64,000 nucleotides of DNA from an uncultured Mycoplasmatota bacterium (GCA_900551455.1 URVV01000004.1:18165-82164); one strand, 5' to 3'. Shown: positions 1 through 16,340, numbered from the stretch's first letter. Notes: a model not told the origin generated them from the sequence alone. Made by a program: numbers and translations.

Positions 1-820
1 GGAACCCTAATTCAATAGAGTTCTCCCCCTTTGATGCTTTATTATCACTGCACACCACTGCTGCATCGAAATTATATCTACTTTGTGCAGCCCATTCTGT
101 TAGTGATTGACTTGCCAATGCTATTGAAGGAACTAAAAATAAGACATTCCCTTTTCCTTTTAATTGTTCCTCTGCAATTCTTAAACTAGTGAATGTTTTA
201 CCAGTTCCACAAGCCATTATTAATTTACCACGGTCGTATTTTTCAAAGCCTTTAAGTACATCACTAATAGCATCAATTTGATGTTTTCTTGGATTCTTCT
301 TATCTATTGTTTCCATTTTTTTAGACATTAAAGAATACTTTTTCCAGTCAATTTGTGAATCAAGCAAGTCTGCAATGCCCAATCTGCCAACTTGAGGGTC
401 TTGTCCTCTTAATTCTAAGTCAGCATTTTTATTATATTTATCTGTAGTAGAAGCAATTAATCTATAACTAAATTTCTTTGAAATACCATCTACATCAAAA
501 GTTTTAGAAGATGCAGCTAAAAAAGTATCTACATCATCTTTTGTTATAGTGTGTTCTTCATCATAAAATTTACATTGAATAGCCCAATAATCATTAGTAA
601 ATGTTTTTGCAACTAAATCTATACCAATATCTCCAACATTATCTCTATATGGAAAATCTTTCCACATCCAAACATTAGATAATGTTTGCATATATTTTGG
701 TTCTGATTCTAAAAACATTTTTATAAGTTTTTCAAAAGCAGTTCCTTTATCTCTTTCGTTACCAAATAACCCCCTTAATTCATTCAATAACTCAGTTATT
801 GTCATTTGTTCATTCATCAT
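1..820 (-). CDS. N-terminal part (truncated by window edge) of a large Mrr-type nuclease + SF2 helicase protein, Type ISP restriction-modification-like
   Basis: Not in the ORF track because it runs off the window. My translation from ATG at 820 (GGTG SD at 823-828) reads MMNEQMTITELLNELRGLFGNERDKGTAFEKLIK...DIGIDLVAKTFTNDYWAIQCKFY (Mrr-like D...QxK nuclease core), then ...GKLIMACGTGKTFTSLRIAEE (Walker A / helicase motif I). Confidence 0.6.
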   Translation of the reverse strand, partial: MMNEQMTITELLNELRGLFGNERDKGTAFEKLIKMFLESEPKYMQTLSNVWMWKDFPYRDNVGDIGIDLVAKTFTNDYWAIQCKFYDEEHTITKDDVDTFLAASSKTFDVDGISKKFSYRLIASTTDKYNKNADLELRGQDPQVGRLGIADLLDSQIDWKKYSLMSKKMETIDKKNPRKHQIDAISDVLKGFEKYDRGKLIMACGTGKTFTSLRIAEEQLKGKGNVLFLVPSIALASQSLTEWAAQSRYNFDAAVVCSDNKASKGENSIELGF

Positions 821-927
821 ATCACCTCAAAGTTTTACTTCTACTTATTAAGTATAACATAAAAATCGATAAATTTCGAGAATTTGAGATAATAAAAAGG
901 AAGAATTTTAATTTCTTCCATAATAAT

Positions 928-1185
928 TCATTCAATATCTCTAAATAAGTCAGGTACTTCGATATTTAACCAATGACATATAATACATACTTCTTTAAGT
1001 GTTATTCTTTTAGCTTTACCACTTAATATATTCATAAGTCTTTGAGGTGATATATCAGGATTCACTTTTGCTATTAGATATTCAACTGCTTTTATATCAG
1101 GACAAGTCTTTTTAAATTCTTCGTCATTATCCATTTTATCAAGATATTTTAAGATTTCAACTGATATTTTTTGATATATATTCAT
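928..1185 (-). CDS. small XRE/Cro-like HTH protein
   Basis: 85 aa. C-terminal ...KRITLKEVCIICHWLNIEVPDLF resembles the HTH_3 recognition helix region. Confidence 0.4.
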   Translation of the reverse strand: MNIYQKISVEILKYLDKMDNDEEFKKTCPDIKAVEYLIAKVNPDISPQRLMNILSGKAKRITLKEVCIICHWLNIEVPDLFRDIE

Positions 1186-1193
1186 ATTAATAT

Positions 1194-1346
1194 TTAATTC
1201 CTTTCATTATTTACTTTTAATTCTTCAATTATTTCTTTAATTTCACTTGTCTTTTCTAATATTTGTTTTAAATTATCAACACTACTAAATTCTATATCAT
1301 TAATCTTATTTGTTATATCAGCTAATGATTTAGATATATCTTTCAT
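1194..1346 (-). CDS. hypothetical 50-aa protein
   Basis: Below the track cutoff. ATG at 1346 is preceded by GGAGGTG. Translation is MKDISKSLADITNKINDIEFSSVDNLKQILEKTSEIKEIIEELKVNNERN. Confidence 0.3.
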   Translation of the reverse strand: MKDISKSLADITNKINDIEFSSVDNLKQILEKTSEIKEIIEELKVNNERN

Positions 1347-1543
1347 ATTCCTACACCTCCTAAGTTTATATCCATTATATCGTGTATTTTTTATTTGTCA
1401 GTGCTTTTTATTTAAATTATTAAAACTTAATTATAGCTTGTTTATTCACAAAATATGGAGTTTTAACTAATTCTAATATATTTATACTATTTTATTATTT
1501 CTATGAGAATATGATACTCCAAACAAGACCACAGGACTTATTA

Positions 1544-2200
1544 TCAAGATTCATCATCATCAAAGTCCCACAATGATATATCTTGAGTAATATATCTAAG
1601 ATTATTAATAAGACTAATCTTAAGATAATTAAATTTATCATCTATTGAATTACCATACTCATCTTTATTATTATTTAATTTTAAATGTTTAAGTATATAA
1701 TTGGTACACATATAAATTAACTGATAATCATATTCTTGATTCAACTCCTTATACATTTCTTCATATTTATTTATTTCAAAGTCATCTTTACTAATATAAC
1801 GACGTCTAATTAATTCTTTTGTATAACCGCTTATAAGTGTTTCATCTATTTCATCTTTATTATTTATTTTATTTATTATATCTTTATTTTCCATATCCCG
1901 TATATTGGGATATGGTAATTCATATATAGCATAATCATACTTAACAAATCTTCCTTTATCATCTCTTATAGACTTTCTAATTAAATAGTTTTTGGATTCT
2001 AACTCTTTTAATAACCTATGGATAGTATTTTTACTTTCTTTAACAAGAGAAGCAAGTCCTACTGTAGAATAAGACCAATCATTAGGAAGTGATAACATAG
2101 TTATTAATAGTGCTTTAGCTGCTAGACTTAAATCTTTATCTTTTAATAATTCATTAGATATTCTTGTATAATTAATTTTATTTTCTTCTCTAAAGACCAT
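1544..2200 (-). CDS. winged-helix DNA-binding protein, replication-initiator/DnaD-N-like, typical of mobile elements
   Basis: 218 aa. N-terminal YTRISNELLKDKDLSLAAKALLITMLSLPNDWSYSTVGLASLVKESKNTIHRLLKELESKNYLIR pattern. SD GGAGGGTG lies upstream. Confidence 0.5.
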   Translation of the reverse strand: MVFREENKINYTRISNELLKDKDLSLAAKALLITMLSLPNDWSYSTVGLASLVKESKNTIHRLLKELESKNYLIRKSIRDDKGRFVKYDYAIYELPYPNIRDMENKDIINKINNKDEIDETLISGYTKELIRRRYISKDDFEINKYEEMYKELNQEYDYQLIYMCTNYILKHLKLNNNKDEYGNSIDDKFNYLKISLINNLRYITQDISLWDFDDDES

Positions 2201-2492
2201 ACTATCACACCCTCCGTGATGGTATATTTTAACGTATTTTTATAAATATCTGGATAGGACATTAAGATTTTTTTCTCTCTTATTCAAAGGTAGCATTATT
2301 TTTGTGATAATGTGATAGACTGTATTTCTTTAATATAAATAAAAAAATACCACTTCAAATATGAGTAGTATAGTGTTATAATTCATTATAGTTATAAAAA
2401 CAAATATCTAGGTCGACATAGTAAGTAACTTCATGTGTTTTATGGTGAGCATACCTACATAATCTAGTAAAGATAAACGCTTCCTTTTTGTA

Positions 2493-3340
2493 CACATTAT
2501 ATGTATTGAAGGTGCTTTAGCTTTAAGTTTAACTCCATACCTACCACCTTGTTTAATAATTTCCGGAGTTTCTAATTTCATATCTGCAAGAGTTGGTGAA
2601 GCAATTCCGTATCCCGTCTGTTTAACCGTTTTAAGAGCTGACTTAATTTGGTCATACTCAGTTTTAGTCTCATTAAATTCCTGAAATAAACTAAGTAAGT
2701 CTGCTTTAGAACTAATATCCACGTTAATAATTTCATTAAGTACCTGCCCATATAACTCTTTTGGAGCCGACAAATTAATTGTTACTTCCCCCGTTGAAGT
2801 GTCTACATCCGACAAATAAGCTTTATCTATATATTCACAATCATTAAAGTATTCTGTAATTGAATCAACCTCTCTAATTTTATCAATAGATAATACACTC
2901 TCTTTAATCTTCTCAATATAACACTTCTTTACATAATGTTGAGGATTTAATATAGATATCCAATCAGGAATATTTACTTTAACCTCAACAACCGGGAACT
3001 CATATAACGCCTCTTTCAATATATTATACATATCTCTTTCTTGCATTAATTCAACATTAATAGGTAATACTGGAACCCCATACTTATTTTTAAGTTCTAA
3101 AGTTAAGTTATTTGCCTCTTGACTTCCAGGATTAGCTGTATTTAAAAGAATAATAAAAGGTTTTCCTATTTCCTTTAACTCGTTGACCACCGTCTCTTCA
3201 GCTTCAACATAATTATTTCTTTTAAATTCCCCAAAAGATCCATCCGAAGTAACAACAATTCCAATAGTAGAATGTTCCTTAATAACCTTCTCAGTTCCAA
3301 TCTCGGCAGCCTCTACAAAAGGAATTGGTTCACTATACCA
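2493..3340 (-). pseudogene. spoIVA: spoIVA internal segment (stage IV sporulation protein A), bounded by foreign DNA on both sides
   Basis: Continuous frame YSEPIPFVEAAEIGTEKVIKEHSTIGIVVTSDG...ELKEIGKPFIILLN...LYEFPVVEVKVNIPDWI...TEYDQIKSALKTVKQTGYGIASPTLADMKLETPEIIKQGGRYGVKLKAKAPSIHIM. It is colinear with B. subtilis SpoIVA (...TPWYEEPIPFHEAAEIG...APSIHMIKVDV...). After IHIM the frame runs into unrelated CTKRKRLSLLD...* (stop at 2408). Confidence 0.85.
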
Positions 3341-3408
3341 GTATGACCTGTTTTTGTGATACCTAATTTTATTTTTAAAAATTGCTTGGAAGCAACTCGT
3401 ATTTTTAC

Positions 3409-4995
3409 CTATATTAATACTTCACTTTTTTTAATTCTATAATGAATTTCTAGTTTTTTATCTTTCGTTACATATATTTTATCTATTAATCTATTCATGA
3501 TTTCTCTTGTTGGATTTTTCATATCTAGAAAACTTTTAATAATATCTAAATATTCTACATAACAAGAAGAATCATCATTAATACTAGATATTTCATTTTG
3601 TAATTGTTCTAGTTTATCTTTTGCAGTTTTAATATCTTCTTCAGTAGCATTAAATAATCTTTGATAAGTTTCTACACTTATAACATTATTAAATTTATCA
3701 TCATATAAAGAGTCTTGTTTTCTTTTTAAATCATTTATTGTATGATTTAATTCTTCTATCTTTTTTAGTTTATCTGCTTTTGGATCAACATATTGGCTTT
3801 TAATAATATTTTCAAATTCTTCTTTATCATTAATATATTGATTAGCCATAGTACTTAACTTGTCATAGACTGTGTTTTCTAGTTTTGTATAGTTAATATA
3901 GTGAGAAAAGCATATATCATACTTACTAAACTTACGATAGTTATTACAATTCATTGTGACTCTATCTCTTTTCTTATCATAACTAATACTCATTCTAGCA
4001 CCACAATCTTTACAAAATACTAAATCAGATAAAACATAATCAACATTTCTTCGTTCAGGATTATAATTATTTGATGAATCTTTAATAGATTGTGCGATTT
4101 CAAATGTTTTCCTATCTACAAGTGGTTCGTGTGCATTTTCTTTAATACACCATTCACTTTCAGGAACACTTTTTCTTTTCTTAATCTTATAATTCACTTT
4201 TTGAAATCTGTGTTGAATTAAATCTCCAATATAAACTCTATTTTTGATGATATTACTGACAGATGTGTGTTTCCATATTTCAGGATGGTCAAATCTATTT
4301 AATTTTGAATCAGAGTATTTATACATAACTGGTGTAGGTAATTCTTCTCTTGTTAGTATTTCAGCAATTTGTGAGCTACCATAACCTGCAACATATAAAT
4401 CAAAAATTCTTTTTACTACAGGAGCAGTTTCTGGATCAGGTACTAGTTTGTGTTTGTCTAAAGGATCTCTCATATAACCATAAGGTGCAGAACTTCCACA
4501 AAACTTTCCATCTTTTTTCATTTGAAGTAAGTTTGAACGAACTTTTTTAGAAATATCTTTTGCATACATATCATTCATACTTAATCTAAATGGCATCATA
4601 TCAGAGCCACTTGTTTCAAAAAAAGTATCTATATCATCGTTTACGGCAACATATCTAACATCGTTTTCTGGGAAAAATGTTTCAACATAATAACCAGTCA
4701 TTATATGGTCACGACCTAATCTTGATAAATCTTTAGTAATAACCATGTTTATTTTTCCATTTTCAATGTCATTTAACATTCTCTTAAACTCTGGGCGTTC
4801 AAAATTTGTTCCTGTATAACCATCATCTACATAAATATCAACTGCAACTAATCCTTGTGCTTTTAAATAACCAATTAATAAACTTCTTTGATTAGTGACA
4901 CTTTCTGATTCCATATCATCACCATCTTCACGAGATAGTCTTATATAAATGGCTATTTTAAAAATCGTATTGTCTATTGCATATCTACTATACAT
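3409..4995 (-). CDS. large serine recombinase (element A integrase/excisionase)
   Basis: 528 aa. IAIYIRLSREDGD catalytic-Ser motif with ...ITKDLSRLGRD, a recombinase domain, the Cys pairs CKDCGARMS...MNCNNY, and a coiled-coil tail. SD AAAGGAGA. Confidence 0.9.
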   Translation of the reverse strand: MYSRYAIDNTIFKIAIYIRLSREDGDDMESESVTNQRSLLIGYLKAQGLVAVDIYVDDGYTGTNFERPEFKRMLNDIENGKINMVITKDLSRLGRDHIMTGYYVETFFPENDVRYVAVNDDIDTFFETSGSDMMPFRLSMNDMYAKDISKKVRSNLLQMKKDGKFCGSSAPYGYMRDPLDKHKLVPDPETAPVVKRIFDLYVAGYGSSQIAEILTREELPTPVMYKYSDSKLNRFDHPEIWKHTSVSNIIKNRVYIGDLIQHRFQKVNYKIKKRKSVPESEWCIKENAHEPLVDRKTFEIAQSIKDSSNNYNPERRNVDYVLSDLVFCKDCGARMSISYDKKRDRVTMNCNNYRKFSKYDICFSHYINYTKLENTVYDKLSTMANQYINDKEEFENIIKSQYVDPKADKLKKIEELNHTINDLKRKQDSLYDDKFNNVISVETYQRLFNATEEDIKTAKDKLEQLQNEISSINDDSSCYVEYLDIIKSFLDMKNPTREIMNRLIDKIYVTKDKKLEIHYRIKKSEVLI

Positions 4996-4998
4996 TTT

Positions 4999-5181
4999 TT
5001 ATCTCCTTTCAGTAGACAACACATTCACTTTATTAGTTGAATTAATTATACTATTTTTTGCGTTCGATTTAAATACTTTTGATGAATTTTTATAAGCCAT
5101 ATAATATTTATATATACAACTTTTTAAGACTTCTTTTAAATCACAACCATTACTATCATAAAATTCTAGTGTTTCATACAT
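4999..5181 (-). CDS. hypothetical 60-aa protein translationally coupled to the LSR gene
   Basis: GGAGG SD. The stop lies 3 nt before the LSR ATG. No recognisable motif. Confidence 0.4.
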   Translation of the reverse strand: MYETLEFYDSNGCDLKEVLKSCIYKYYMAYKNSSKVFKSNAKNSIINSTNKVNVLSTERR

Positions 5182-5256
5182 GATTATTCCTCCACAATGA
5201 ATTTTATGTGTAATAGTTTATAAAAATTACTATTCTTCATAAATTATCACACCTTT

Positions 5257-5676
5257 CTATTGATATTCTTTTAGCATATCTTCCATTTCTTTAAGTTCTT
5301 CTTCAGTGGGTGGAATTGCTTCACATCTTTTTCCATCCCAAACTTCAACACCGTCTGAATCAAGTCTTATATGAGGACCTTTTCTTCCGTTCATCATTTC
5401 ATCTTTATTGTCTGATATATCAGTCACAGTAATAAAACTTTGTATTCTTTCATTTGTAATATAAGAATTAAGATAACCTTTAACAAAAACTCTTGTTCCT
5501 TTAACAAAAAAATCTTTATATATTTCATAAAGATTTCGGTTAATATTAAAACTAGCATAAACTTTCCTTTTATCATATTTAAGAGTGGTTAAACCAAACT
5601 TAATATAATCTTTATTATTATCTGTCACATTATTAATAGTTCCAGATATTATAATTTCGTTTAAATCAATTTCCAT
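5257..5676 (-). CDS. hypothetical protein, possibly an OB-fold/SSB-like domain
   Basis: 139 aa. N-terminal LNEIIISGTINNVTD...VFVKGYL loosely resembles SSB OB-fold strands, with an acidic C-terminus. Weak call. Confidence 0.3.
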   Translation of the reverse strand: MEIDLNEIIISGTINNVTDNNKDYIKFGLTTLKYDKRKVYASFNINRNLYEIYKDFFVKGTRVFVKGYLNSYITNERIQSFITVTDISDNKDEMMNGRKGPHIRLDSDGVEVWDGKRCEAIPPTEEELKEMEDMLKEYQ

Positions 5677-5826
5677 TTTTATAACTTCCTTTCTTTTTAA
5701 TCTTTTTAAAGATTTAAATTATTAAAATAATTTTAAATTTATATTATCTATTAATATTATTTATTATATTATTTATTCTGTTAGAAGATACTTGCTATAC
5801 TCACTAGCAGTATCTTGCTATTACAT

Positions 5827-6108
5827 CTAGCAGAAATCTGCTAAATAGATTCTTCTTATATTAGGTTCATTTTCAACTCTAATATATTTTTTTGTTCTTA
5901 ATGATGTTATGCAACTAGTAATCGTTCTTTTAGATACTTTTAAAAGATTACTTAAATACTTATTACTTGCATAACAAAATCCCTCTTGCATAGATAGGGT
6001 ATTAATTAAACCCATTAATAGTTTAGTAGTAGAAGATAGTTCTTCATCTAATAAAACTATTGTAGGCACCTCTATATGCTTTAATTTAGTAATATCGCTA
6101 TTATTCAT
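5827..6108 (-). CDS. winged-helix DNA-binding protein (MGE Rep/DnaD-N-like)
   Basis: The track starts at a TTG (6141). I prefer the ATG at 6108, preceded by AAAGGAAAGGAG. Pattern: LDEELSSTTKLLMGLINTLSMQEGFCYASNKYLSNLLKVSKRTITSCITSLRTKKYI. Confidence 0.5.
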   Translation of the reverse strand: MNNSDITKLKHIEVPTIVLLDEELSSTTKLLMGLINTLSMQEGFCYASNKYLSNLLKVSKRTITSCITSLRTKKYIRVENEPNIRRIYLADFC

Positions 6109-6395
6109 ATTATCAATCTCCTTTCCTTTAAATTTAGGCAATAAAAAAACTTGTAAACACTACTTACAAGTCATACTAATAATGACAATAAAATCCCTGT
6201 GTGAGATAAATCTCACTAAATAGGTTGCTTGAAGTAAAACATACATAACATATTTCAATCCCTTTTATTCTTTTATTTCGTTCTTTGAAATATGTTTTAC
6301 TTCAAACTAGTTCATCTTATATTTCTATAAGATAGGTTCTAATATAAATCTACGAACATTTACTGAACCTTTATTTGTTAGTGATTTAATCTTTT

Positions 6396-6662
6396 CTAAC
6401 AAATCTCGTATGTGTATAATCCTCGGTCGTATTCATTGAACCTTATATATTTGTTATCTTCTAATATTTTTAGGTTCTTCTTGAATCCAACATTTGTTAT
6501 ACTCAATTTCTTTTGAACTCTCCCGATACTTATACTTGTGAATTCACATCTTTGGGATTGTTCCGCACAGAGTATTTTGTATATCAGCTTCGTTTCAAAC
6601 TTGATATTTTTATCTCTCCATACTCTTGGATCAATTAATTCTAGTTGTTTTTTTAATCTCAT
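6396..6662 (-). CDS. small winged-helix DNA-binding protein
   Basis: 88 aa. FETKLIYKILCAEQ...ISIGRVQKKLSITNVGFKKNLKILEDNKYI. GGAGG upstream. Confidence 0.4.
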   Translation of the reverse strand: MRLKKQLELIDPRVWRDKNIKFETKLIYKILCAEQSQRCEFTSISIGRVQKKLSITNVGFKKNLKILEDNKYIRFNEYDRGLYTYEIC

Positions 6663-6844
6663 ACATTTGATTTCCTCCTTTCTTTTTCTATGTTACCCAT
6701 TTAATTTAAAGGTGGGTTCATTTGGAAACATATTTAATATATCATGCTAATTACTATATTGTCAACACTTTTTTACCCATTTATTGAAATTATGTTGACT
6801 TTTTTACCCACTGGGTGTATTATTATGGTGTGAGGTGAATTTCT

Positions 6845-7348
6845 ATGCTAGAAAAAAATATCGGCGAAGTTATTGCTGAAGCTAGAGAAAAGAAAGGTTT
6901 ATCGCAAAGACAACTTGCGAAACTTGCAAAGATTAATAACTCTGAACTTTCTAAAATAGAATCAGGTATAAGAAAAGATCCTAGTCCTAAAATATTAAGA
7001 AAGATAAGTAATATAATAGATGTTAATTATAGTGACTTAATGTATATGATAGGTTTAGGATTAGAAGTGACACAACTTAATTATTTTGTTAAGAGTCATT
7101 ATGCTAGTTTAAATCTAGAACAATTAGATACTGCTGAAATAAATGTTTTAGGAAGTATAGAAAATTCTGAAAGTATAGTTTCTACATGTAAAAAAGAATT
7201 AGAAAAAGATGATTTACCAGAAGAACAAAAAGAGTTATTAATACATACTATCGAAGATCATACATATCAAATTAATTCATCAAAAGAAATAATCAAACTT
7301 ATTCAAAGTTTAAAAGTAAAGGAGAGAAATAAAAATGCTAAAAAGTAA
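6845..7348 (+). CDS. XRE-family HTH transcriptional regulator
   Basis: 167 aa. IAEAREKKGLSQRQLAKLAKINNSELSKIESG is a classic HTH_3. Confidence 0.8.
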   Translation: MLEKNIGEVIAEAREKKGLSQRQLAKLAKINNSELSKIESGIRKDPSPKILRKISNIIDVNYSDLMYMIGLGLEVTQLNYFVKSHYASLNLEQLDTAEINVLGSIENSESIVSTCKKELEKDDLPEEQKELLIHTIEDHTYQINSSKEIIKLIQSLKVKERNKNAKK

Positions 7349-7763
7349 TATAATTAAAAAATTATTAGTAGTAGTGAATTTTATTGTAGGATTATTTTTA
7401 ATACTAACTATCATATTTAATAATAAACTTACTTATTCTTTATATTGGATTTTAATTCCTATTTTAATATTTTTAATTGTAATGTTTATATATGAGGTAG
7501 ATAAAGGGTTAATTGAAATAAATCAAAACGAGGGCAAGTCAATTAGAAGATCATATAATGATATAACAGTTGTATCTACTGTATTCTATGGATTAATATA
7601 TTTAGGAATAGAGTTTATTGATATGATAAATAGTGATGTTAGAAATAATATTTATTTAGTATGTGGTTTCTTTGCAATTACACTTTTATATGAATTATTT
7701 GTATTCATGGCAATTAAGAGTGCTAAAAAAGAAACATCGGAATTACTAAATAAGAAAAAATAA
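7335..7763 (+). CDS. small multi-pass membrane protein
   Basis: 142 aa with about 4 hydrophobic helices. Overlaps the upstream XRE gene by 14 nt. Confidence 0.5.
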   Translation: MLKSNIIKKLLVVVNFIVGLFLILTIIFNNKLTYSLYWILIPILIFLIVMFIYEVDKGLIEINQNEGKSIRRSYNDITVVSTVFYGLIYLGIEFIDMINSDVRNNIYLVCGFFAITLLYELFVFMAIKSAKKETSELLNKKK

Positions 7764-7870
7764 ATTTATGAAGTAAATTTATAATCCTTACTTTTGCATA
7801 GCAAAAGAAAAAAATAACCTTTTACCCTTTCGTTAGATTAGGTATTAGGTTATTTTTATTTAAAGAATAC

Positions 7871-8085
7871 GTGGCACGTTTTGTTGCTTTAGCAATGAAA
7901 GTGGCGATAGTATTCTTTCTTTTTTATGTAGTCGCAAGACAAAATAAAAAAGAGCAACATTCACTTACGATAGTTTGTGAAATGTTGCTTATTGGGTTTC
8001 AAAAGGGTGTCCCTTTGCACACTATTCCTAGTTGGCAAAATGCCGACTTGGTAGTGTGTTACTATCTTGTCTTAAAGATAGTCTT
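7871..8085 (+). other. conserved noncoding module shared with element C (putative oriT or structured RNA)
   Basis: GTGGCACGTTTTG-TTGCtttaGCAA-TGAAAGTGGCGATAG at 7871-7910 matches the minus strand of 48206-48168, with a compensatory stem change. Downstream are GTGTGT (8054-8059) and the hairpin ACTATCTT/AAGATAGT (8061-8082). Confidence 0.5.
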
Positions 8086-8219
8086 TCACGAAAATCCATT
8101 AGTTATGTAATTTCTTTTGGATTTTCGTTTTCAATAGGTTTTGATTTTTATATTTAATTTATTCAGAATATCTTAATATTACGATTTAATCGATAAATTG
8201 TAATTTAGCGAATAGTAAC

Positions 8220-10142
8220 TTAATTTTCTTTTTTATTAAACATATGGCGTACTTTATCTATTCGATTATTTGGTCTGCGTGATTGAATAACTGGTTCACA
8301 AGTAGCAATTTGATAATCTTTTAATTCTGTCAAAAAAACTGCTTGCCCATTTGTATATAGAGTTAAAGTATTACGATATTCATTAATACAACGTGCAGGA
8401 ATATGTCCTGTAAAAATAACTTCATCATTTTTTGATTGACTTGTTTCAATTATTGCACAATGTTTTTGTGCATCATTATATGCACGAGAAAAGTATTCCT
8501 GTGGTGTAAAAAGTATAAACGAACAATATGGCTCTAATAATTGCGTTCCCGCTTTTTTCAATGTTTGTTCAAGTACAATTGGGGCAAGAAAGCGAAAATC
8601 CGAGGGAGTACTAACAGGGCTATAATAAACACCATATTCAAAACATATTTTACAATCTGTTACTTCCCAACCATACAAACCTTGCTCCAGTCCATAATTA
8701 ATACCTTCTCTTACTGCATTTTGGAAACTTTGATTTAAATAACCGAGTGAAACTTTGCTTTCGTACTGTATTCCACTGCCAATTGGAAGTGGAGTTATTG
8801 ATAATCCAATCGATGCCCAAAATGGATTTGGTGGTACTTCAATATGAATAGTATAATCTGCCTTTTGTAATGGTTTTTCCAAATAAATTACGGTTGGATC
8901 TTCGATTCTTATGTTTATGTGATATTTTTCAATCAACAGAGAACAGATAACTTCTAACTGCACTGTTCCTAAAAAAGAAATGATGATTTCATGTGTTATC
9001 GTATCAACATAATAACGTAAAAGAGGATCAGTATCTGCAATTTCTGTAAGAGCATCCAATAATTTTTCTCTCTCTTCTATTTTTATCGGTTCAATTCTTG
9101 TTCGTAGTATTGGTACAGTCTTGTCATTCCATACATTGCATGGCAAAAGCTTTTCATTTCCTATAATATCGTTCAATCTTAATGTATTGTTAGGTATAAT
9201 AAAAATATCTCCAGAACAAACTGTTTTTGTCTGTATCATTTCTCCATTTGAAGGAATATATATTTCTGTAAGTTTCACTTTCTTTTTTTCTGGCAATATA
9301 ATTGTATCTCGTAAGTGTAATGTTCCACTGTAAAGACGCAAATAAACTAATCTTTGCTTATGGTCTGTATATTCAATTTTAAAAACCCTTCCACATAGTT
9401 CTGAATCATTCTCATTCATTTCAGGACAAAAAAGATTTGAAATAGCTTCGATGAGTTGTTGAGTCCCTATATTATTTCTAGCACTTCCATGGTATATAGG
9501 AAACAACGAACCTTTTTTAACACACCTATATTCTTCATACGTTAATTCTTGTATAGTCAATTTTTCTCCTGCAATATATTTTTCTAAAAGTTTATCATTT
9601 TTGGAAATTACAGGATCCCAATCATCTAAATCAATAATATTTTTAATTGATATTTCTGGAGTTAATGTTACATTTTGCATAACAATAATATCATTTGAAA
9701 GTTTTTCTTTGATATTTTGATAAATATTATTTAAGTTAATTCCATCCTGATCTATTTTATTTATAAAAATAATTGTTGGTATATTCATTTTTTGAAGTGC
9801 ATGGAATAGTATTCTGGTTTGTGCTTGTACACCATCTTTAGCAGAAATTACTAAAATAGCTCCATCAAGAACAGATAAGGAACGATACACTTCTGTTATA
9901 AAATCTGCATGTCCAGGAGTATCTACAATATTGATTTTGTAGTCATTCCAATTAAAAGAAGTAACTGCTGCCTGAATTGTGATTCCACGCTGACGTTCTA
10001 AAAACATAGTATCTGTCCTTGTTGTTCCCTTATCTACACTGCCTAATTCTAAAATCGCTCCACTTGTATAAAGCAGACTTTCCGTTAAAGTTGTCTTTCC
10101 TGCATCTACATGAGCAAGAATACCAATGTTGATTATTTTCAT
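8220..10142 (-). CDS. tetracycline-resistance ribosomal protection protein, Tet(M)/Tet(O)/Tet(44) family (640 aa; a Tet(44)-like allele is suspected from memory only)
   Basis: [30 protein letters not shown]...[17 protein letters not shown]...DTPGHADF...INKIDQ is the EF-G-like GTPase with the characteristic RPP N-terminus. SD GGGAGGGA. Confidence 0.93.
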
Positions 10143-10191
10143 TGAATTTCCCTCCCTACAAATTTATCTTTTAACTTAAAATCAATATTTG

Positions 10192-10719
10192 CTAATTTTG
10201 TTCTTTTAAACTATTCTCAAAATCAATTATCCACTTTTCTAATGTTTCTACTAATGCTAATTGTTGTTTGAACATTTGTTTTCCAACATTAGGAATATGT
10301 TGTCTATGAGATTGTCTTTCATTTAGTAATTCTTTTAATTCTAATATCTTTGATTTTATATTAGAAACAAGAATCTTTTTTTGTTCATCATCTACTAAAT
10401 CTAAATTCGTAATAATAATATTAAAATCCAAATATAGACTAACATCATAATTTGAAATATCATTCATAAGTCTATTAAAATAATCATTACCTTTGTCAGT
10501 AATAGTATATACTGCTTTATCTGGCATATTTCCCTCTTTCTCTTTATGGCAAACAATATATTCTTTTGATTCTAATTGTAATACTTTCTTATAAATAGAC
10601 TGTTCACTAATTCTTACCCATCTTGGTATATTACGATATTCTATATTTTTTTTAATATCATAAGCACTTTGTGATTTTTGTTTAATAAGTCCTAATAATA
10701 CCAAATCTATATTTGACAT
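10192..10719 (-). CDS. PadR-family transcriptional regulator
   Basis: 175 aa. LVLLGLIKQKSQSAYDIKKNIEYRNIPRWVRISEQSIYKKVLQLESKEYI. Lies 49 nt upstream of tet. Confidence 0.75.
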   Translation of the reverse strand: MSNIDLVLLGLIKQKSQSAYDIKKNIEYRNIPRWVRISEQSIYKKVLQLESKEYIVCHKEKEGNMPDKAVYTITDKGNDYFNRLMNDISNYDVSLYLDFNIIITNLDLVDDEQKKILVSNIKSKILELKELLNERQSHRQHIPNVGKQMFKQQLALVETLEKWIIDFENSLKEQN

Positions 10720-10731
10720 AATCTCTACTCC

Positions 10732-11082
10732 TTACTTAATATAATCTGTAACGCCAAGTCTATTTCCAAATGGATCTTCAAACTCGACTGCATTACCCGT
10801 TCCAATTTTAAAAGGCTCACTCAAAAATTTTATACCATTATTCAACATTTCTTTATAGAAGATTGCAACATCTTCTACTTCAAACCATATTGTAGGCTTT
10901 AAATTCTCAAATTTATTTTTGTCTTTTAAAATTATTGCAGGTTCTTCATTTCCAATATTATAAGCAACCATTCCCTTATCAGAGAAATCAAATTTCTTTT
11001 TTAACCCCAATATTTCCTCATAATATCTTTTTGCTTCTTCCATATTATCTACTGGAAGAAAATAGTTGTCATAATTTTTCAT
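10732..11082 (-). CDS. VOC/glyoxalase-bleomycin-resistance family protein
   Basis: FLPVDNMEEAKRYYEEILGLKKKFD...FEDPFGNRLGV. The track start is a GTG at 11091; the ATG at 11082 is also possible. Confidence 0.7.
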   Translation of the reverse strand: MKNYDNYFLPVDNMEEAKRYYEEILGLKKKFDFSDKGMVAYNIGNEEPAIILKDKNKFENLKPTIWFEVEDVAIFYKEMLNNGIKFLSEPFKIGTGNAVEFEDPFGNRLGVTDYIK

Positions 11083-11232
11083 ATACTCCACATCTCCTTT
11101 TTTGCTATAAGCTACACTACTATATTTTATAGTAGTTACCGTTAAAAGTCAATATATAACAAAAAAGACTGTCATTACTGACAATCTTTTCGGTAAATTA
11201 CTATAAATCAATAACTATAAAATTGTAATTTA

Positions 11233-11913
11233 TTAATTCTTGCAATCCCCTTCTGTATATTCCATAGAATAATCGCCAATTAATATATTTTTATCATTTT
11301 TAGTGGTATGGCATACTATCATAGTGATATCTTTATTTTTAGATTTGTAAATTTTTGTTCCTCCATCTCTCAATGTGACTGTTAACTCTAATTTATCAGT
11401 AATATTTTTTATGCCATCATCAAGTGTTTGATAAGCAGTTGAAAGATAAGTTTTCAAAGTAATATCTTTATCTTTATCTTTAATATAAAACTCTCCAATA
11501 TTACCAGCTAAATAAATTGTGCGATTTTCAACAGTACAATAATCATTAAATCTAATATCATTATGATTTTCAGGCTTTGTTATATAAAAATCAAAATCGT
11601 TAATCTCAATATTTGTTGTTCCTACTTGTGCTGGATAGCTTTCATTAATCATACCTTTATAAGTAATAGTTACCTTATCCCCAATTTTACAAGAATTAAA
11701 ACCATCAACATATTCAATTCTAAATTTATCGCTAGACTTATATTCTTCTTCATTTTCATTTGGGCGAACAATCATAGTTTTTTCTTCGCACTCTGTTATA
11801 GTTCCTGCAAAGGTATGAATATCATCTAAATTATTTTGTTTTGACTTTCTACAACCAGTCATTCCTAATACCATAACCCCACACACTAAAATAGCAAATA
11901 ATGTTTTTTTCAT
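11233..11913 (-). CDS. lipoprotein of unknown function
   Basis: Signal peptide with lipobox LGMTGC. GGAGGAG SD. Confidence 0.6.
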   Translation of the reverse strand: MKKTLFAILVCGVMVLGMTGCRKSKQNNLDDIHTFAGTITECEEKTMIVRPNENEEEYKSSDKFRIEYVDGFNSCKIGDKVTITYKGMINESYPAQVGTTNIEINDFDFYITKPENHNDIRFNDYCTVENRTIYLAGNIGEFYIKDKDKDITLKTYLSTAYQTLDDGIKNITDKLELTVTLRDGGTKIYKSKNKDITMIVCHTTKNDKNILIGDYSMEYTEGDCKN

Positions 11914-12047
11914 AATCTCTCCTCCATTTCAACAAATTACTATTTATCTGTCTGTTTAATTATATCATACTTTTTACATATTTTTTTATTAATATACTAA
12001 TCATAAGATTACTATTTTACTAACATTTTATTTTATATAATATATCA

Positions 12048-12335
12048 TTATATATCAGAATATAATTTCTCAATTAAATCATATTCTTCTCCTAATTGAG
12101 CATATAATTCAGATATTTTATTTTCATATTCTTCTTTCTTATTGTTATATTCAATAAGTTTCTTTTTTTGAAAGAAGAAAGGTTTATTATCTTCTAAGTG
12201 GTCAATTAATGTTTGATAAGACTTTATTCTATTATCTATCATTCTTATATTTATATTTGAATCTTCAATAGCATATCTAATATTTAGTTTTAATAATGAT
12301 TTAAATAACTCATTATCATCATTTTTTTTAGTCAT
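12048..12335 (-). CDS. hypothetical coiled-coil protein
   Basis: 95 aa. GGAGGTG SD. No motif. Confidence 0.4.
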   Translation of the reverse strand: MTKKNDDNELFKSLLKLNIRYAIEDSNINIRMIDNRIKSYQTLIDHLEDNKPFFFQKKKLIEYNNKKEEYENKISELYAQLGEEYDLIEKLYSDI

Positions 12336-12453
12336 AATGCACCTCCAATACTTAAATATTTATTACAATTTAATTATATCACTTTTTTAACGAATAATCT
12401 TCGGTTTTGTAGTTAAAACTAATTTTAATGGGACAATAGTATCGGTGATAGTT

Positions 12454-12903
12454 ATGTTTGATAATAATTTACGATATGCTAGAGAAGAATTAGAAATGAC
12501 ACAATCTGAACTGGGTTATATATTTGGTGTATCTGATTCAGCAGTTAGATCATGGGAAACTGCTCACGATTCAATACCTTTACCTAAACTAATTAAATTT
12601 TGTGATATGTATGATTTCTCATTAGATTTTATATGTGGTTTAATTAGAAAGAATATTACTTATGGTCATTTTAAAACTGACAAAGTTAAAATTAGTAAAA
12701 AATTAAAAGAGTTAAGAAAAAGTTTAAATCTATCTCAACAAAAATTATCTGATGATTGCAAAATATCTCAAACAACATATAGTGGTTATGAAACAGGTCA
12801 TTATCTAATTAATACAACTAATCTTTATTATATTTGTAAAACTTATAATGTTTCTATGGATTGGATTGTTGGAAGAACTAATAATCAAAAAATAGGCAAA
12901 TAA
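12454..12903 (+). CDS. transcriptional regulator with two tandem XRE-type HTH domains
   Basis: LRYAREELEMTQSELGYIFGVSDSAVRSWE and LKELRKSLNLSQQKLSDDCKISQTTYSGYE. ATG at 12454 follows GGTGA (the track uses GTG at 12445). Confidence 0.7.
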   Translation: MFDNNLRYAREELEMTQSELGYIFGVSDSAVRSWETAHDSIPLPKLIKFCDMYDFSLDFICGLIRKNITYGHFKTDKVKISKKLKELRKSLNLSQQKLSDDCKISQTTYSGYETGHYLINTTNLYYICKTYNVSMDWIVGRTNNQKIGK

Positions 12904-12907
12904 AAAA

Positions 12908-12948
12908 AGCGAGAGTATGCTAAAAAAAATAACATATTCTCGCTTTTA
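12908..12948. terminator. bidirectional stem-loop between convergent genes
   Basis: GCGAGAgTATG...CATAtTCTCGC flanked by an A-run and a T-run. Confidence 0.45.
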
Positions 12949-13341
12949 TAATACATTTAGTGAATAACAATAATCATATACATTTAATTGTTCATTGATT
13001 TTGGTATTTATTTCTTCATTATTAAAGTCATATTGAAAGATATTAAACAGCATTTCTAATGAAAACTTTCGCTTTTCTAATAATGATAGCTCCATATACT
13101 TTGCTGAAATAAATAATAGGTTCTTATATTTAGCAAAGTTAGTTATTACATTTTTAGATTCAGGATCTAGTATTAATAATACATTTTTTAGAAGTTTAAT
13201 GAAGTTATTAATATCATAAATAGGTGTAAACCCTATATCTTCAAGTAGGTGTATTGCTAATCTAACCTTATCAATTCCTTTTAAATCATCAAACATATTA
13301 ACTAAATCAATAACTTTCTCGGTATTATCATCTAATAACAT
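12946..13341 (-). CDS. hypothetical protein downstream of the relaxase gene
   Basis: 131 aa. AAAGGAGA SD. No motif. Confidence 0.4.
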   Translation of the reverse strand: MLLDDNTEKVIDLVNMFDDLKGIDKVRLAIHLLEDIGFTPIYDINNFIKLLKNVLLILDPESKNVITNFAKYKNLLFISAKYMELSLLEKRKFSLEMLFNIFQYDFNNEEINTKINEQLNVYDYCYSLNVL

Positions 13342-13513
13342 AAATATTCTCCTTTCAAATACGCCATTTAAGGCACTTTATTTAAAGAACAGATAAGAGA
13401 TTAAACCTTAACTTAAAACTCAACTATAAGCATTTAAATAGGGTATAATTTCAAATTTCTGTTTTTCTATTTATCACTCTAACAATCAAAAAAATCAAGA
13501 GTATTTTTTAAAT

Positions 13514-14806
13514 TTATCTACTTAAATCAAAATCATCTTTATCGTATTCTTCTTCATCATAATCTCTAACTCTTTCTTTATAATAATCTGGTGCTTCAAC
13601 ATAATCAAATAATTCATCTTGTTTAGTTGTTCCTTTAGATATTCTTACAACATCTCCCATATCAAACTCACTATTATCATAACAATCTTTAACAACATCA
13701 GCAGTTTCATCTTTAGTATAATCATTACCTCGTTGTAATAATTTTCTTAAAAATTTCTTTAATAGTTGAAATAGTTCACTTAATCTATAAATTAAACTTC
13801 TATTTTCTTGTTCTAGGTTTTGATTTTCATATTCTAGTTTACTTATTTCTTTCCTATATTTTTGATTTTCTTTTTCTAGTGATTTATAACTATTAGCATA
13901 ACTATCAACTTTATTAAATATTGTTTGTAGTTTAGGTTGCAATTCCATTACTTTTTTAGATTCATTAATAACATTATTCATACTATCAAAAGTTTCTTTT
14001 TCTAAAATAACATGTTTATTATCAAAAGGAATCTTTTTATTTGTTTTCATTTGTTCTTCAAACTCACTCATCGCTTTATCTAATCTATCACTTTTAGCAT
14101 TTAATTCGTGATTTAATTTTTTAGTAAGTTGTTTATATTCTTTTATTTTAATGTGTTTATTATCACTACCTTTAATACCTCGTTCTAGATCATAACCTTT
14201 TTCAGTTAGACTTTTATGATACATATCTTGTAATTGTGATAGGTGTATTTTATCTCTAATATATTGTTTTTTAGATATGGTATATCTTTCAGTATTAGTT
14301 CTCTTATCCAATTTCTTAACAAGTGGAACAACAACACAATGAACATGAGGTGTTAATTCATCTAAATGGACAGTTGCATGTAAAATTTGTTCTTTTTTAT
14401 AACCTAAATCTTTATAAACAAATTCCATACAAGTATCTGCCCATTCTTTTATTTGCTCTCTAGACATACCATCAAAGAAAGTATGAGTAGCAGTAAAAAT
14501 TAATTCATCAGCAACACAATTTTTGGAACTATTTAACATTTCATGGTATCTTTTCTTTCTATCAGCTCGTTCAGTTTTCATTCTTTCTTCGTGTTCTTTT
14601 TTATATTCTTTTGTTAGTTTATCAAAACCTTTAGTATATTTCATATCTAGTGGAACAAGTTCTATATTATTTTTACTTAATTCTATTTTAATATCTTTAT
14701 TTGATTGATAAGCTTTCTTTTCTCGCTTATTATGTGATCCTATTTGGGCTAAATCAGGTATAGTCATAATAGGTTCACTTCTAAATATTGCATAATTTAA
14801 TTCCAT
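13514..14806 (-). CDS. MobV-family (Mob/Pre, plasmid recombination enzyme) relaxase
   Basis: N-terminal GSHNKRE (HxxR) and HLDELTPHVHCVVVPL (HxDExxPHxH), followed by a long coiled-coil C-terminus. Confidence 0.88.
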   Translation of the reverse strand: MELNYAIFRSEPIMTIPDLAQIGSHNKREKKAYQSNKDIKIELSKNNIELVPLDMKYTKGFDKLTKEYKKEHEERMKTERADRKKRYHEMLNSSKNCVADELIFTATHTFFDGMSREQIKEWADTCMEFVYKDLGYKKEQILHATVHLDELTPHVHCVVVPLVKKLDKRTNTERYTISKKQYIRDKIHLSQLQDMYHKSLTEKGYDLERGIKGSDNKHIKIKEYKQLTKKLNHELNAKSDRLDKAMSEFEEQMKTNKKIPFDNKHVILEKETFDSMNNVINESKKVMELQPKLQTIFNKVDSYANSYKSLEKENQKYRKEISKLEYENQNLEQENRSLIYRLSELFQLLKKFLRKLLQRGNDYTKDETADVVKDCYDNSEFDMGDVVRISKGTTKQDELFDYVEAPDYYKERVRDYDEEEYDKDDFDLSR

Positions 14807-14871
14807 ATATCATTTCTCCTTTCTTTTTAAACAACAAAAAAGATATGTCGTTAAACATACCTTTAATTACA

Positions 14872-15855
14872 TTAATCATCATATCTCTTGTTATAATGAC
14901 AATAATTTCTTATCTTACATTTCTCGCAGTTAGGGTGTTCTCCACAAATGTTAGCAGATCTTAATAAACAAAATTGTTGGATTATTGATTCTACGATTAT
15001 CTCATCACAGTTATTTAATTCAGCAATCTTTTTTATAATATTTAATACTTGTTGTTCAGTAGCATTAGCATTTTCAACAATTCCTAGTCTATGACTACCA
15101 AATAATCTTTCTAATTGAGAACTCTTTTTGCAAGTATTAACTCCAACTCTTTTTAAATAATCATAAGCAAAAGCTCGTCCAACTTGTATTAATTTATATT
15201 TACCACTGTTAAACATATTTGCTATGTCATTAGGTTTTTCTTTACTTACAAACTTATCTAAACTTCCATAATCTTTTTCTATTTGTTCTAATACCATTAT
15301 ATTTTTAGATAATGCTTTCATTTGATAACTAATCATTGGGTTAGTGCAATGAATCTTCCTTAACTTATTAACTAAAACACTTGGTTCAACAACTTTTAAA
15401 TAATTCTTATTATAATTATGAAATATTTCATCAATAGCATCCATATTTTCCCTAATATTATTATCTCCCCATCTATGATTAGAAAGTAGAGCAATTATTA
15501 ATGCCTTTAAATGTTCTTCAAAAGAATATTTTTTACCTTTCTTTCTTGATTTAACATTATTAACTAAATCTTTAATATCTCTCATATAATCGTAATTGAT
15601 TTTTTCCATACTTTCTTTTATAAGAGGGTATATATCTTTTAAATCATTATCATCTAATAAAGTAATATTTTTAACCATTTCATAGTTAGGATTATATATT
15701 TCTTCCTTATCAATACAATTCTTTAATACATCTATAACTTCTGCATTAGATAAATACTTTACTTTCTCAATAGGAAATACAACTTTATTTACCTTAACAT
15801 ATTTTATCAGCAAAGGAATTAATTCACTATTTTTAAAAATTTCCTTATTTTCCAT
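14872..15855 (-). CDS. endonuclease III-like HhH-GPD superfamily protein with a C-terminal Fe-S cluster loop
   Basis: The C-terminus CGEHPNCEKCKIRNYC (C-x5-C-x2-C-x5-C) is close to the EndoIII/MutY cluster loop. LIQVGRAFAYDYLKRVGV is hairpin-helix-like. There is an extra N-terminal domain of about 110 aa. ATG at 15855 preferred over the track GTG at 15870. Confidence 0.55.
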   Translation of the reverse strand: MENKEIFKNSELIPLLIKYVKVNKVVFPIEKVKYLSNAEVIDVLKNCIDKEEIYNPNYEMVKNITLLDDNDLKDIYPLIKESMEKINYDYMRDIKDLVNNVKSRKKGKKYSFEEHLKALIIALLSNHRWGDNNIRENMDAIDEIFHNYNKNYLKVVEPSVLVNKLRKIHCTNPMISYQMKALSKNIMVLEQIEKDYGSLDKFVSKEKPNDIANMFNSGKYKLIQVGRAFAYDYLKRVGVNTCKKSSQLERLFGSHRLGIVENANATEQQVLNIIKKIAELNNCDEIIVESIIQQFCLLRSANICGEHPNCEKCKIRNYCHYNKRYDD

Positions 15856-15977
15856 AAAAAAATATCTCACTTTCTAAATTTTAGCCTTTAACTAATAAAG
15901 TGAAATATTGCCTTTTATCCTTATTTTATAAGGTATTTCTTTATTTTTATATTTGGGTATCACTTATTCAACAACAA

Positions 15978-16340
15978 CCAAGGAGTCATTACATATCTAG
16001 GACCATTCTCATCATCCACTCCCTTAGCATCATTAATAACATACCCAACACAATCAATCATTTTAATATTTGCTGAGAATTCATCTACCATAATTTTAGC
16101 CGCATTTGCTGGCACAAATTTTGGTTCTGTTGTCATAATCATTTTTCCACTAGCAGCTTGTGGTAACTCATCTAAAGTTCTTTTCTTTTCAAATTCATCC
16201 TGAATATTCGGAATAACCATATTTTCCATAAATCTACGTATAAATGTAGATTTACCAGTTCTAACTGCTCCAACAACTCCTAAATAAATATCTCCCCCCG
16301 TACGTTTAGCAATATTTTTAATAACCTCTATTTTTTCCAT
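15978..16340 (-). pseudogene. spoIVA: spoIVA N-terminal segment (Walker A ATPase part), cut off by element A
   Basis: MEKIEVIKNIAKRTGGDIYLGVVGAVRTGKSTFIRRFMENMVIPNI...MTTEPKFVPANA...DCVGYVINDAKGVDDENGPRYVMTPW, then foreign LLLNK*. B. subtilis has MEKVDIFKDIAERTGGDIYLGVVGAVRTGKSTFIKKFME... SD AGAGGGAG lies before the ATG at 16340. Confidence 0.9.

Follow-up and report, generated by a model that had tools for sequence, protein, structure and literature searches.

The window analysed here is a 64-kb stretch of DNA from an uncultured gut bacterium (GCA_900551455.1, URVV01000004.1:18165-82164), and all coordinates are counted from its first letter. A gene on its minus strand, identified as the sporulation gene spoIVA by the SpoIVA_ATPase, middle and C domains of its product, is split by a 12.6-kb mobile element, called Element A in the following. 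The first-pass annotation, made from the sequence of the window, had placed the element in a sporulation gene, and the domains agree with this. Element A carries a large serine recombinase (LSR), a MobV relaxase, a candidate origin of transfer (oriT) and a tetracycline-resistance block. We consider it very probable that it is an integrative mobilizable element (IME) inserted precisely and reversibly in spoIVA, and that it belongs to a family dedicated to this one site.

Read on the minus strand, the sequence at the upstream junction is ...ATGACTCCT TGG TTGTTGTTGAATAAGTGATACC... and that at the downstream junction ...GGTATCACAAAAACAGGTCATAC TGG TATAGTGAACC.... The 5' part of spoIVA closes with ...ATG ACT CCT TGG at 15980-15978, after which TTGTTGTTGAATAAGTGATACC begins, while on the far side GGTATCACAAAAACAGGTCATAC leads into TGG TAT AGT GAA CC from 3340 downward. 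When the parts are joined with a single TGG, the product reads ...GPRYVMTPW followed by YSEPIPFVEAAEIG..., which aligns without gaps to the intact SpoIVA of a related organism (L091), and the predicted 32-bp joint is present exactly in that related species. The joint of the repaired site is predicted to be ...ACTCCTTGGTATAGTGAACC..., and that of attB ...ATGACTCCTTGGTATAGTGAACC.... With the reconstituted SpoIVA as protein query, many intact 489-aa SpoIVA proteins are found at ca 100% identity, one of which (P0125) is indexed in 182 blocks; the in silico reconstruction, with its restored reading frame, agrees with these natural alleles.

Metagenome contigs of the same species (L092-L094, 99.4-99.9% nucleotide identity) align to the window from 22340 to 15977 and then from 3340 to 2499, with a 4-bp overlap, TGGT. 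In these contigs, all three of which encode P0125, the site is naturally empty, within the same species and precisely where predicted, and they bear out the earlier statement that joining 15978 to 3340 restores the codons ACT CCT TGG followed by TAT AGT GAA. The location given at that time, 3341-15977, is also right, but its literal limits leave out both copies of the core, and the element with one core copy spans 3341-15980. Judged from the in silico joining and from the presence/absence polymorphism within one species, in which empty and occupied alleles are both common, excision appears to be precise and to restore spoIVA. The two halves of the gene are intact open reading frames (ORFs) in dozens of hosts (ca 40), and none is decayed.

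The attachment sites have the form expected for an LSR system, that is, they are short, with an imperfect dyad and a minimal shared core. As had been proposed, the attP of ca 48 bp has inverted 8-bp distal motifs, GGTATCAC and GTGATACC, found at 3356-3363 and 15956-15963 (on the plus strand, as reverse complements); both are kept across the clade, also in divergent relatives, but the inner spacers are more variable. The window family has the layout GGTATCAC-N15-TG-N15-GTGATACC (8+15+TG+15+8 nt), with a spacing of 15 nt, TGG and 14 nt. The crossover dinucleotide is probably either TG or GG; since TG results in a perfectly symmetric 48-bp attP and GG in a 16/14 arrangement, symmetry weakly favours TG. 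The earlier view that TGG is the only shared core holds for most relatives, in which attL continues as TGG-G..., but not for the window copy, whose attL and attR have the four bases TGGT in common. The joint of the excised circle is predicted to read ...CAGGTCATACTGG(T/G)TGTTGTTGAATAAG.... The Ile-Pro codons of attB read ATACC or ATTCC and lie five bases further inward than ATACC does in attP. Contacts of the zinc-ribbon domain are offset between attB and attP in LSR systems, and the five-base shift fits this rule.

The recombinase is covered end to end by the Pfam Resolvase, Recombinase and Zn_ribbon profiles and has the catalytic serine, so that its assignment as an LSR, already made in the first pass, stands. 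With 528 aa it has the length of its relatives and is not truncated. Its match to DUF4368 is weak (23.1 bits against a cut-off of 25). The best match in the PDB is the catalytic domain of TnpX (2mhc, E 3e-27), and the second is SprA of SPbeta, near full length. The identity to TndX is only 35%.

A survey of the 560 LSR relatives found in GTDB species representatives gave 47 loci with at least 53% LSR identity. Four of these are on contigs that end inside or just after the LSR gene, and in all of the 43 assessable ones the insertion is at the same TGG, the Trp-121 codon of spoIVA. None of the 43 relatives with 40-44% identity (L048-L090), a large group from similar metagenome-assembled genomes (MAGs), is inserted in spoIVA: in 42 there is no spoIVA in the flanks fetched, and L054 has an intact, uninterrupted copy. 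The exact LSR protein occurs in the index of 3,182 assembly blocks and lies directly upstream of the 3' part of spoIVA in 10 of the 10 places listed, with different host genes beyond. The carriers are MAGs labelled Bacilli, Tenericutes/Mycoplasmatota, Erysipelotrichaceae or Tissierellia, with human, rabbit and ruminant samples among their sources. The backbone arms are 99-100% identical between copies, while the SpoIVA fragments of the hosts are only 61-85% identical to the reference, which points to recent movement between species. Minimal members of 3.5-4.2 kb have the LSR gene, the small ORF next to it (truncated in L022) and a few other genes, without an intact relaxase. The family is very widespread, has not been described before, and always lands at one spoIVA codon. 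Its LSR can be regarded as a naturally validated single-site integrase with attP and attB fully defined from sequence, and is a candidate tool for genome engineering.

Table 1. Features of Element A and of the split spoIVA gene in the window
Feature	Position	Strand	Remarks
spoIVA 5' part, codons 1-121	15978..16340	-	Walker A GAVRTGKS; ends in TGG core; intact 489-aa allele P0125 begins MEKIEV
spoIVA middle part, codons 121 to ca 401	2499..3340	-	from TGG core to second interruption
Element A, one core copy, 12,640 bp	3341..15980	-	empty-site contigs L092-L094 pass from 15977 to 3340
attR element arm (P), GGTATCAC-AAAAACAGGTCATAC	3341..3363	-	same in all copies with 100% LSR identity; motif kept at 53-92%
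LSR, 528 aa	3409..4995	-	R19/S21 in RLS motif; Pfam Resolvase, Recombinase, Zn_ribbon_recom
60-aa ORF abutting LSR, candidate directionality/accessory factor	4999..5181	-	clade-wide, absent from outgroup
Candidate sigma-E-like promoter, TAATTTT-N14-CATAAAAT	5201..5229	-	upstream of 60-aa ORF and LSR
139-aa ORF	5257..5676	-	backbone, in all copies
HTH_36 Rep-N-like protein, 104 aa	5827..6141	-	backbone, in all copies
88-aa ORF	6396..6662	-	backbone, in all copies
Divergent sigma-70-type promoter pair	6736..6823	both	minus: TTGACA-18-TATATT with TG; plus: TTGACT-17-TATTAT
HTH_3 (cI-like) regulator, 167 aa, and overlapping 142-aa membrane protein (predicted by inspection)	6845..7763	+	
oriT candidate	8030..8068	+	predicted nick 8058/8059; in ca 440-bp backbone stretch
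Variable cargo block	8207..11930	-	limits from backbone comparison
Tetracycline ribosomal-protection gene, TetM/W/O/S-family	8220..10142	-	
PadR	10192..10719	-	
VOC/glyoxalase	10732..11091	-	
DUF3221 lipoprotein	11233..11913	-	
Left-arm backbone: 95-aa (-), double-HTH_3 152-aa (+), 131-aa (-)	12048..13341		
MobV relaxase, 430 aa	13514..14806	-	HxxR and HLDELTPHVH motifs
332-aa protein, HhH-GPD glycosylase-like predicted fold	14872..15870	-	C-terminal Cys cluster; adjoins mobV
attL element arm (P'), TTGTTGTTGAATAA-GTGATACC	15956..15977	-	GTGATACC motif clade-wide
Start of Element B, runs off the window	1..2498	-	spoIVA broken after ...KAPSIH at 2498/2499

The MobV relaxase named in the first-pass annotation scores above the NCBIfam cut-off (113.5 bits against 100), with 102.5 bits for Pfam Mob_Pre, and the motifs HxxR and HxDExxPHxH are present. 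No type IV secretion system (T4SS), mating-pore or coupling-protein (T4CP) domain was found among the 16 Element A ORFs scanned (12.6 kb). An integrase and a relaxase of its own, together with the lack of genes for mating pore and coupling protein, make this the gene set of an IME.

The oriT candidate consists of an 8-bp hairpin, AGTTGGCAAAATGCCGACT, followed by TGGTAGTGTG/TTACTATC (TAGTGTG/TTA at the nick). The nick region of the pMV158 oriT is GTATAGTGTG/TTATAC (PMC5863519), and the 10-mer TAGTGTGTTA of the candidate is identical to it; this 10-mer occurs once in the window, where 0.12 occurrences are expected. The candidate is located in the conserved right arm of the backbone, outside the cargo, and is syntenic in every MobV-bearing relative, including at 92% LSR identity. 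We regard it as a putative oriT of the pMV158 type. No other pMV158-type site was found in the 65-bp gap upstream of mobV or between attL and the gene of the 332-aa protein. The oriT candidate had escaped the first-pass annotation, as had the conserved small ORF, the second element in spoIVA and the widespread family with its swappable cargo.

The middle of the element differs between copies and is a swappable cargo bay, filled here with tet, padR, VOC and lipoprotein genes. The tet block is present in the window and in L010. In L001, L006 and L009 the bay holds ArsR and a P-type (heavy-metal) ATPase, an assignment that for L024 is by backbone similarity only; in L002, L003 and L008 it holds PAP2, with or without APH and acetyltransferase genes and with or without IS110. 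L005 (1-6740) has a vanG-like operon with histidine kinase, VanW, D-Ala ligase, VanY, acyltransferase and racemase, L004 a hydrolase, and L007 MerR with IS110. Insertions of IS110 or IS21 are seen in some copies of the family. The tetracycline ribosomal-protection protein of the window shares no more than 70% identity with the product of any tet(O), tet(W), tet(32) or mosaic gene on PLSDB plasmids, and it scores under the Tet(M)-specific cut-off of NCBIfam. The earlier reading of the cargo and its neighbours as tet(RPP)-padR-VOC, a lipoprotein, HTH regulators and Rep-like proteins is largely right according to Pfam and NCBIfam (TetM/W/O/S-family, PadR, VOC, DUF3221, HTH_3 and HTH_36). The HTH_36 protein matches the N-terminal region of phage replication-initiator families.

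The protein of 332 aa, previously called EndoIII-like, has no sequence-profile match. Its AlphaFold model (pLDDT 85) resembles HhH-GPD glycosylases, with Foldseek matches to TAG, EndoIII-1 and NTHL1 at a probability of ca 1 and a target-normalised TM of 0.5-0.6, but with weak E-values of ca 1e-2, so that the label holds at the level of the fold only. The C-terminal cluster is C-x5-C-x2-C-x5-C. In a relative, L009, a Fic-domain gene is found where this gene would be. Rfam gave two tRNAs only, both outside Element A.

It is important to point out that spoIVA is interrupted a second time in this genome. Element B, whose junction reads ...TCAATACATAT followed by AATGTG, has in the window an HTH_36 gene of 218 aa and a gene of 85 aa, and in L010 (12500-21587) also a small resolvase and a Type ISP restriction enzyme of 1,589 aa. 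Element B occurs independently of Element A: in L095 (3335-7022) there is a B-like element without A, and the empty-site contigs have neither. At the same second site, L008 (12540-19605) and L011 (8275-15340) have a different 7-kb element with the core CATAT. Its genes include one for an LSR of 546 aa, with a 91-aa ORF in front of it, and others for a macro-domain protein and a small resolvase. At the operon of the 546-aa LSR in L008, no clear CATA-type promoter was seen. Since this element uses the second site and Element A uses Trp-121, two unrelated LSR lineages have two fixed sites in one mother-cell gene.

How excision might be controlled is suggested by the region upstream of the LSR gene. 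The 60-aa ORF abuts the LSR start, and a hidden Markov model built from it finds the ORF in 45/45 clade loci with upstream sequence, compared to 0/43 outgroup loci. Its frame relative to the LSR gene is not conserved, which indicates a separate gene. Searches in Pfam (E up to 10), NCBIfam, PHROGs and Foldseek gave no match, and among 5.8 billion proteins the only matches are unnamed or 'hypothetical'. In the AlphaFold model, a single helix (residues 15-32) is predicted with confidence, and the tail is disordered. The position of the ORF mirrors that of the small gene in the pairs sprB-sprA and girX-girC, and the protein could be a directionality or accessory factor, a proposal that we make tentatively and with somewhat more doubt than conviction.

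The best sigma-70-type matches in Element A are the divergent pair between the HTH_3 gene and the gene string 88aa-HTH_36-139aa-60aa-LSR, and this arrangement of regulator and promoters resembles, by analogy, a lysogeny switch. Among the sigma-70 matches listed (35 weaker ones exist besides), no strong one falls in the 75-bp gap that precedes the 60-aa ORF. This gap holds instead the motif TAATTTT-N14-CATAAAAT, 15 nt before the ribosome-binding site of the ORF. The sigma-E consensus of B. subtilis is kmATATT-N14-CATACAnT, and the motif fits it at 6/7 and 7/8 positions. When divergent relatives are aligned on the ribosome-binding site, 11/14 retain the CATA box together with its C, and the host spoIVA promoters in these genomes have the same type of box. 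The chance of such a motif in that gap is roughly 0.002-0.005, assessed post hoc.

On the basis of these features, the following mechanism can be proposed. The LSR would integrate the attP into the single site in the spoIVA coding sequence, the TGG codon of Trp-121, and excision would be precise, with spoIVA rebuilt. As homology suggests, MobV would nick the excised circle at the putative oriT, which lies across the cargo block from it, and a co-resident conjugative element would move the nicked circle between species. During vegetative growth, the cI-like repressor and the divergent promoter pair upstream of the LSR operon would set the level of excision, whereas in the mother cell the sigma-E-like promoter before the 60-aa ORF and the LSR gene would switch excision on. 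In this way spoIVA would be rebuilt in the mother cell while the forespore keeps the element, as is the case with skin, SPbeta, vfbin and gin. In B. subtilis, spoIVA is an early gene under sigma-E control (PMC517825), and a skin-like model therefore calls for an excision timed by sigma-E. Excision in the mother cell is to us the most attractive mechanism, and we judge the chances that it is driven from the sigma-E-like promoter to be even.

Element A has the structural features of the elements that intervene in sporulation genes, namely a mother-cell host gene, a recombinase of its own and an excision that is predicted to restore the frame. With skin (sigK), SPbeta (spsM; SprA/SprB), vfbin (spoVFB), vrin (spoVR) and yin (yabG) it shares the LSR gene at the element end beside the gene fragment, the small gene directly upstream as in sprB-sprA, and the mother-cell target, in addition to the PDB match to SprA. 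These are prophages or prophage remnants, however, while Element A is an IME with MobV and with cargo for antibiotic or metal resistance. A non-viral case is gin in gerE of Bacillus cereus, which has a serine recombinase with a small partner gene and is excised to rebuild a mother-cell sporulation gene; experiments have demonstrated this excision, and a conjugative plasmid has been suggested as the helper of its transfer (PMC5595907). Unlike Element A, for which excision is deduced from sequence, gin has no relaxase and no resistance cargo, and its target belongs to the sigma-K stage and not to the early sigma-E stage. In the open-access literature searched, spoIVA is not among the reported targets of intervening elements (sigK, spsM, spoVFB, spoVR, gerE and yabG), and none of these elements has a relaxase or resistance cargo. 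Streptococcal and Faecalibacterium IMEs (PMC5357655, PMC5704250, PMC12084326) also combine a serine integrase, MobV, oriT and cargo with the lack of mating-pore genes. In comparison with them, Element A has an integrase of another clade and another target, splits a developmental gene, and resides in presumably spore-forming, uncultured low-GC gut hosts.

Other explanations of the split gene have to be weighed against an IME dedicated to spoIVA. That Element A is an immobile remnant or an assembly chimera is hardly credible: the hosts are known from metagenome assemblies only, but independent assemblies and sources show the same junctions, both of them already on single contigs (L004, L012 and the window), the backbone genes are all intact, the backbone is identical across species, and the polymorphism is found at 99.4-99.9% flank identity. 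Another option considered was that it is a proper member of the Tn4451/Tn4453 family (Clostridium perfringens and C. difficile; TnpX and TnpZ) which, with relaxed targeting, is in spoIVA by chance. The first-pass annotation had drawn a parallel to this family in organisation, and it holds for the functional layout, since both are small chromosomal resistance elements with an LSR for excision and integration and a MobV/Pre protein for mobilization in trans; the PDB match to TnpX and the weak DUF4368 match also speak in this direction. Membership is nevertheless very improbable. Tn4451/Tn4453 have many target sites that contain GA, whereas all 43 assessable relatives of Element A are at one codon with the core TG(G), and the GA ends are not found. 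The 60-, 88-, 95-, 131-, 139- and 142-aa ORFs have no Pfam match (E<=0.01, and E<=10 for the 60-aa ORF), so that no genes of TnpV/TnpW/TnpY type were detected, and, unlike the region upstream of tnpZ with its RS_A site, the gap before mobV lacks a site of pMV158 type. In addition, the oriT candidate lies away from mob, the 60-aa ORF is extra, the LSR is distant from TndX, and Element A as a whole gave no megablast match to PLSDB plasmids or INPHARED phages. DUF4368 is typical of the multi-targeting TndX-like LSRs and rare in site-specific ones (Durrant et al., PMC10083194), while the LSR of Element A, with its sub-threshold match, behaves as strictly site-specific. In function, Element A resembles a Tn4451-type IME, but the single site, the TG(G) core and the undetected TnpV/W-type genes place it outside the Tn4451/Tn4453 family.

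A possibility to be taken more seriously, though on balance we lean against it, is a plain knock-out island. Here spoIVA would be a conserved landing pad that is neutral in growth, carriers would be asporogenous unless the element leaves, and excision, tied only to transfer and controlled by the repressor, would be carried out by the LSR in both directions alone, as by TnpX and TndX. For excision and integration, TnpX and TndX need no additional directionality factor, and since they are the closest characterised relatives, the 60-aa ORF may do something else. The cI-like repressor with its strong divergent promoters, the MobV and oriT candidate pair, the weak DUF4368 match and the coexistence of empty and occupied alleles in one species would all be in line with such an island, and loss of sporulation is frequent in gut Firmicutes. 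However, with the LSR in 3,182 blocks and relatives in the representatives of many species, the cost would be heavy if sporulation were abolished, and no decayed spoIVA halves are seen among the ca 40 hosts. The strict co-inheritance of the small ORF with the LSR, behind a CATA-type promoter, and the presence of two independent LSR families in the same mother-cell gene, as expected from the rule for intervening elements (PMC4191935, PMC5595907), also argue against it.

Several observations weigh against the IME with mother-cell excision that we prefer. The intact halves of spoIVA could merely mean that the insertion is recent, and since the hosts are uncultured, sporulation of the carriers is presumed only. 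The circular joint was not found, the exact attP joint pattern being absent from IMG/VR, and the oriT candidate differs from that of pMV158 in being ca 5.5 kb away from mobV, on the opposite strand. The model of the 60-aa protein is weak (pLDDT 67), with no structural match. As to the promoter, its assignment depends on a consensus from B. subtilis, its -10 box also holds a sigma-A-like TAnAAT, and the motif is not enriched in the window (3 hits against 5.7 expected), so that the argument is one of position and conservation only.

Two further candidate observations concern the region around the downstream junction. In L032 (11597-12763) and L022 (11420-12586), a start codon within the attR arm opens an in-frame ORF into the 3' part of spoIVA; the product would be a 388-aa SpoIVA without the Walker A region and is probably meaningless. 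A SpoIVA-like peptide between the LSR stop and the TGG in some relatives (tblastn from residues 93-96) was rejected on inspection as a weak extension of the alignment.

With Element A, spoIVA becomes a further case among the few sporulation genes interrupted by mobile DNA (sigK, spsM, spoVFB, spoVR, gerE and yabG), and the intervening DNA is in this case a mobilizable element with relaxase and resistance genes and not a prophage remnant. As the family is extremely common in gut metagenomes, crosses hosts whose SpoIVA proteins differ by up to ca 40%, and swaps its cargo (tetracycline, aminoglycoside, vanG-like, metal), it is a plausible major overlooked vehicle of resistance in uncultured spore-formers. 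Its LSR, which adjoins the usually multi-targeting TnpX/TndX branch, is useful for studying how site-specificity evolves. One can speculate further that sporulation itself triggers the release of a transferable resistance element, with a sigma-E-driven small factor and the LSR excising the IME in the mother cell; we think this rather unlikely. If it were true, a circular, oriT-bearing, plasmid-like resistance molecule would arise in a mother cell that is about to lyse or is a dedicated donor, while the forespore germ line would retain the integrated copy. The rebuilding of spoIVA would place coat assembly under an additional timing check, with the two elements of this genome acting in series, and the family would represent a new class, the developmentally gated IME, dominant in uncultured gut spore-formers.

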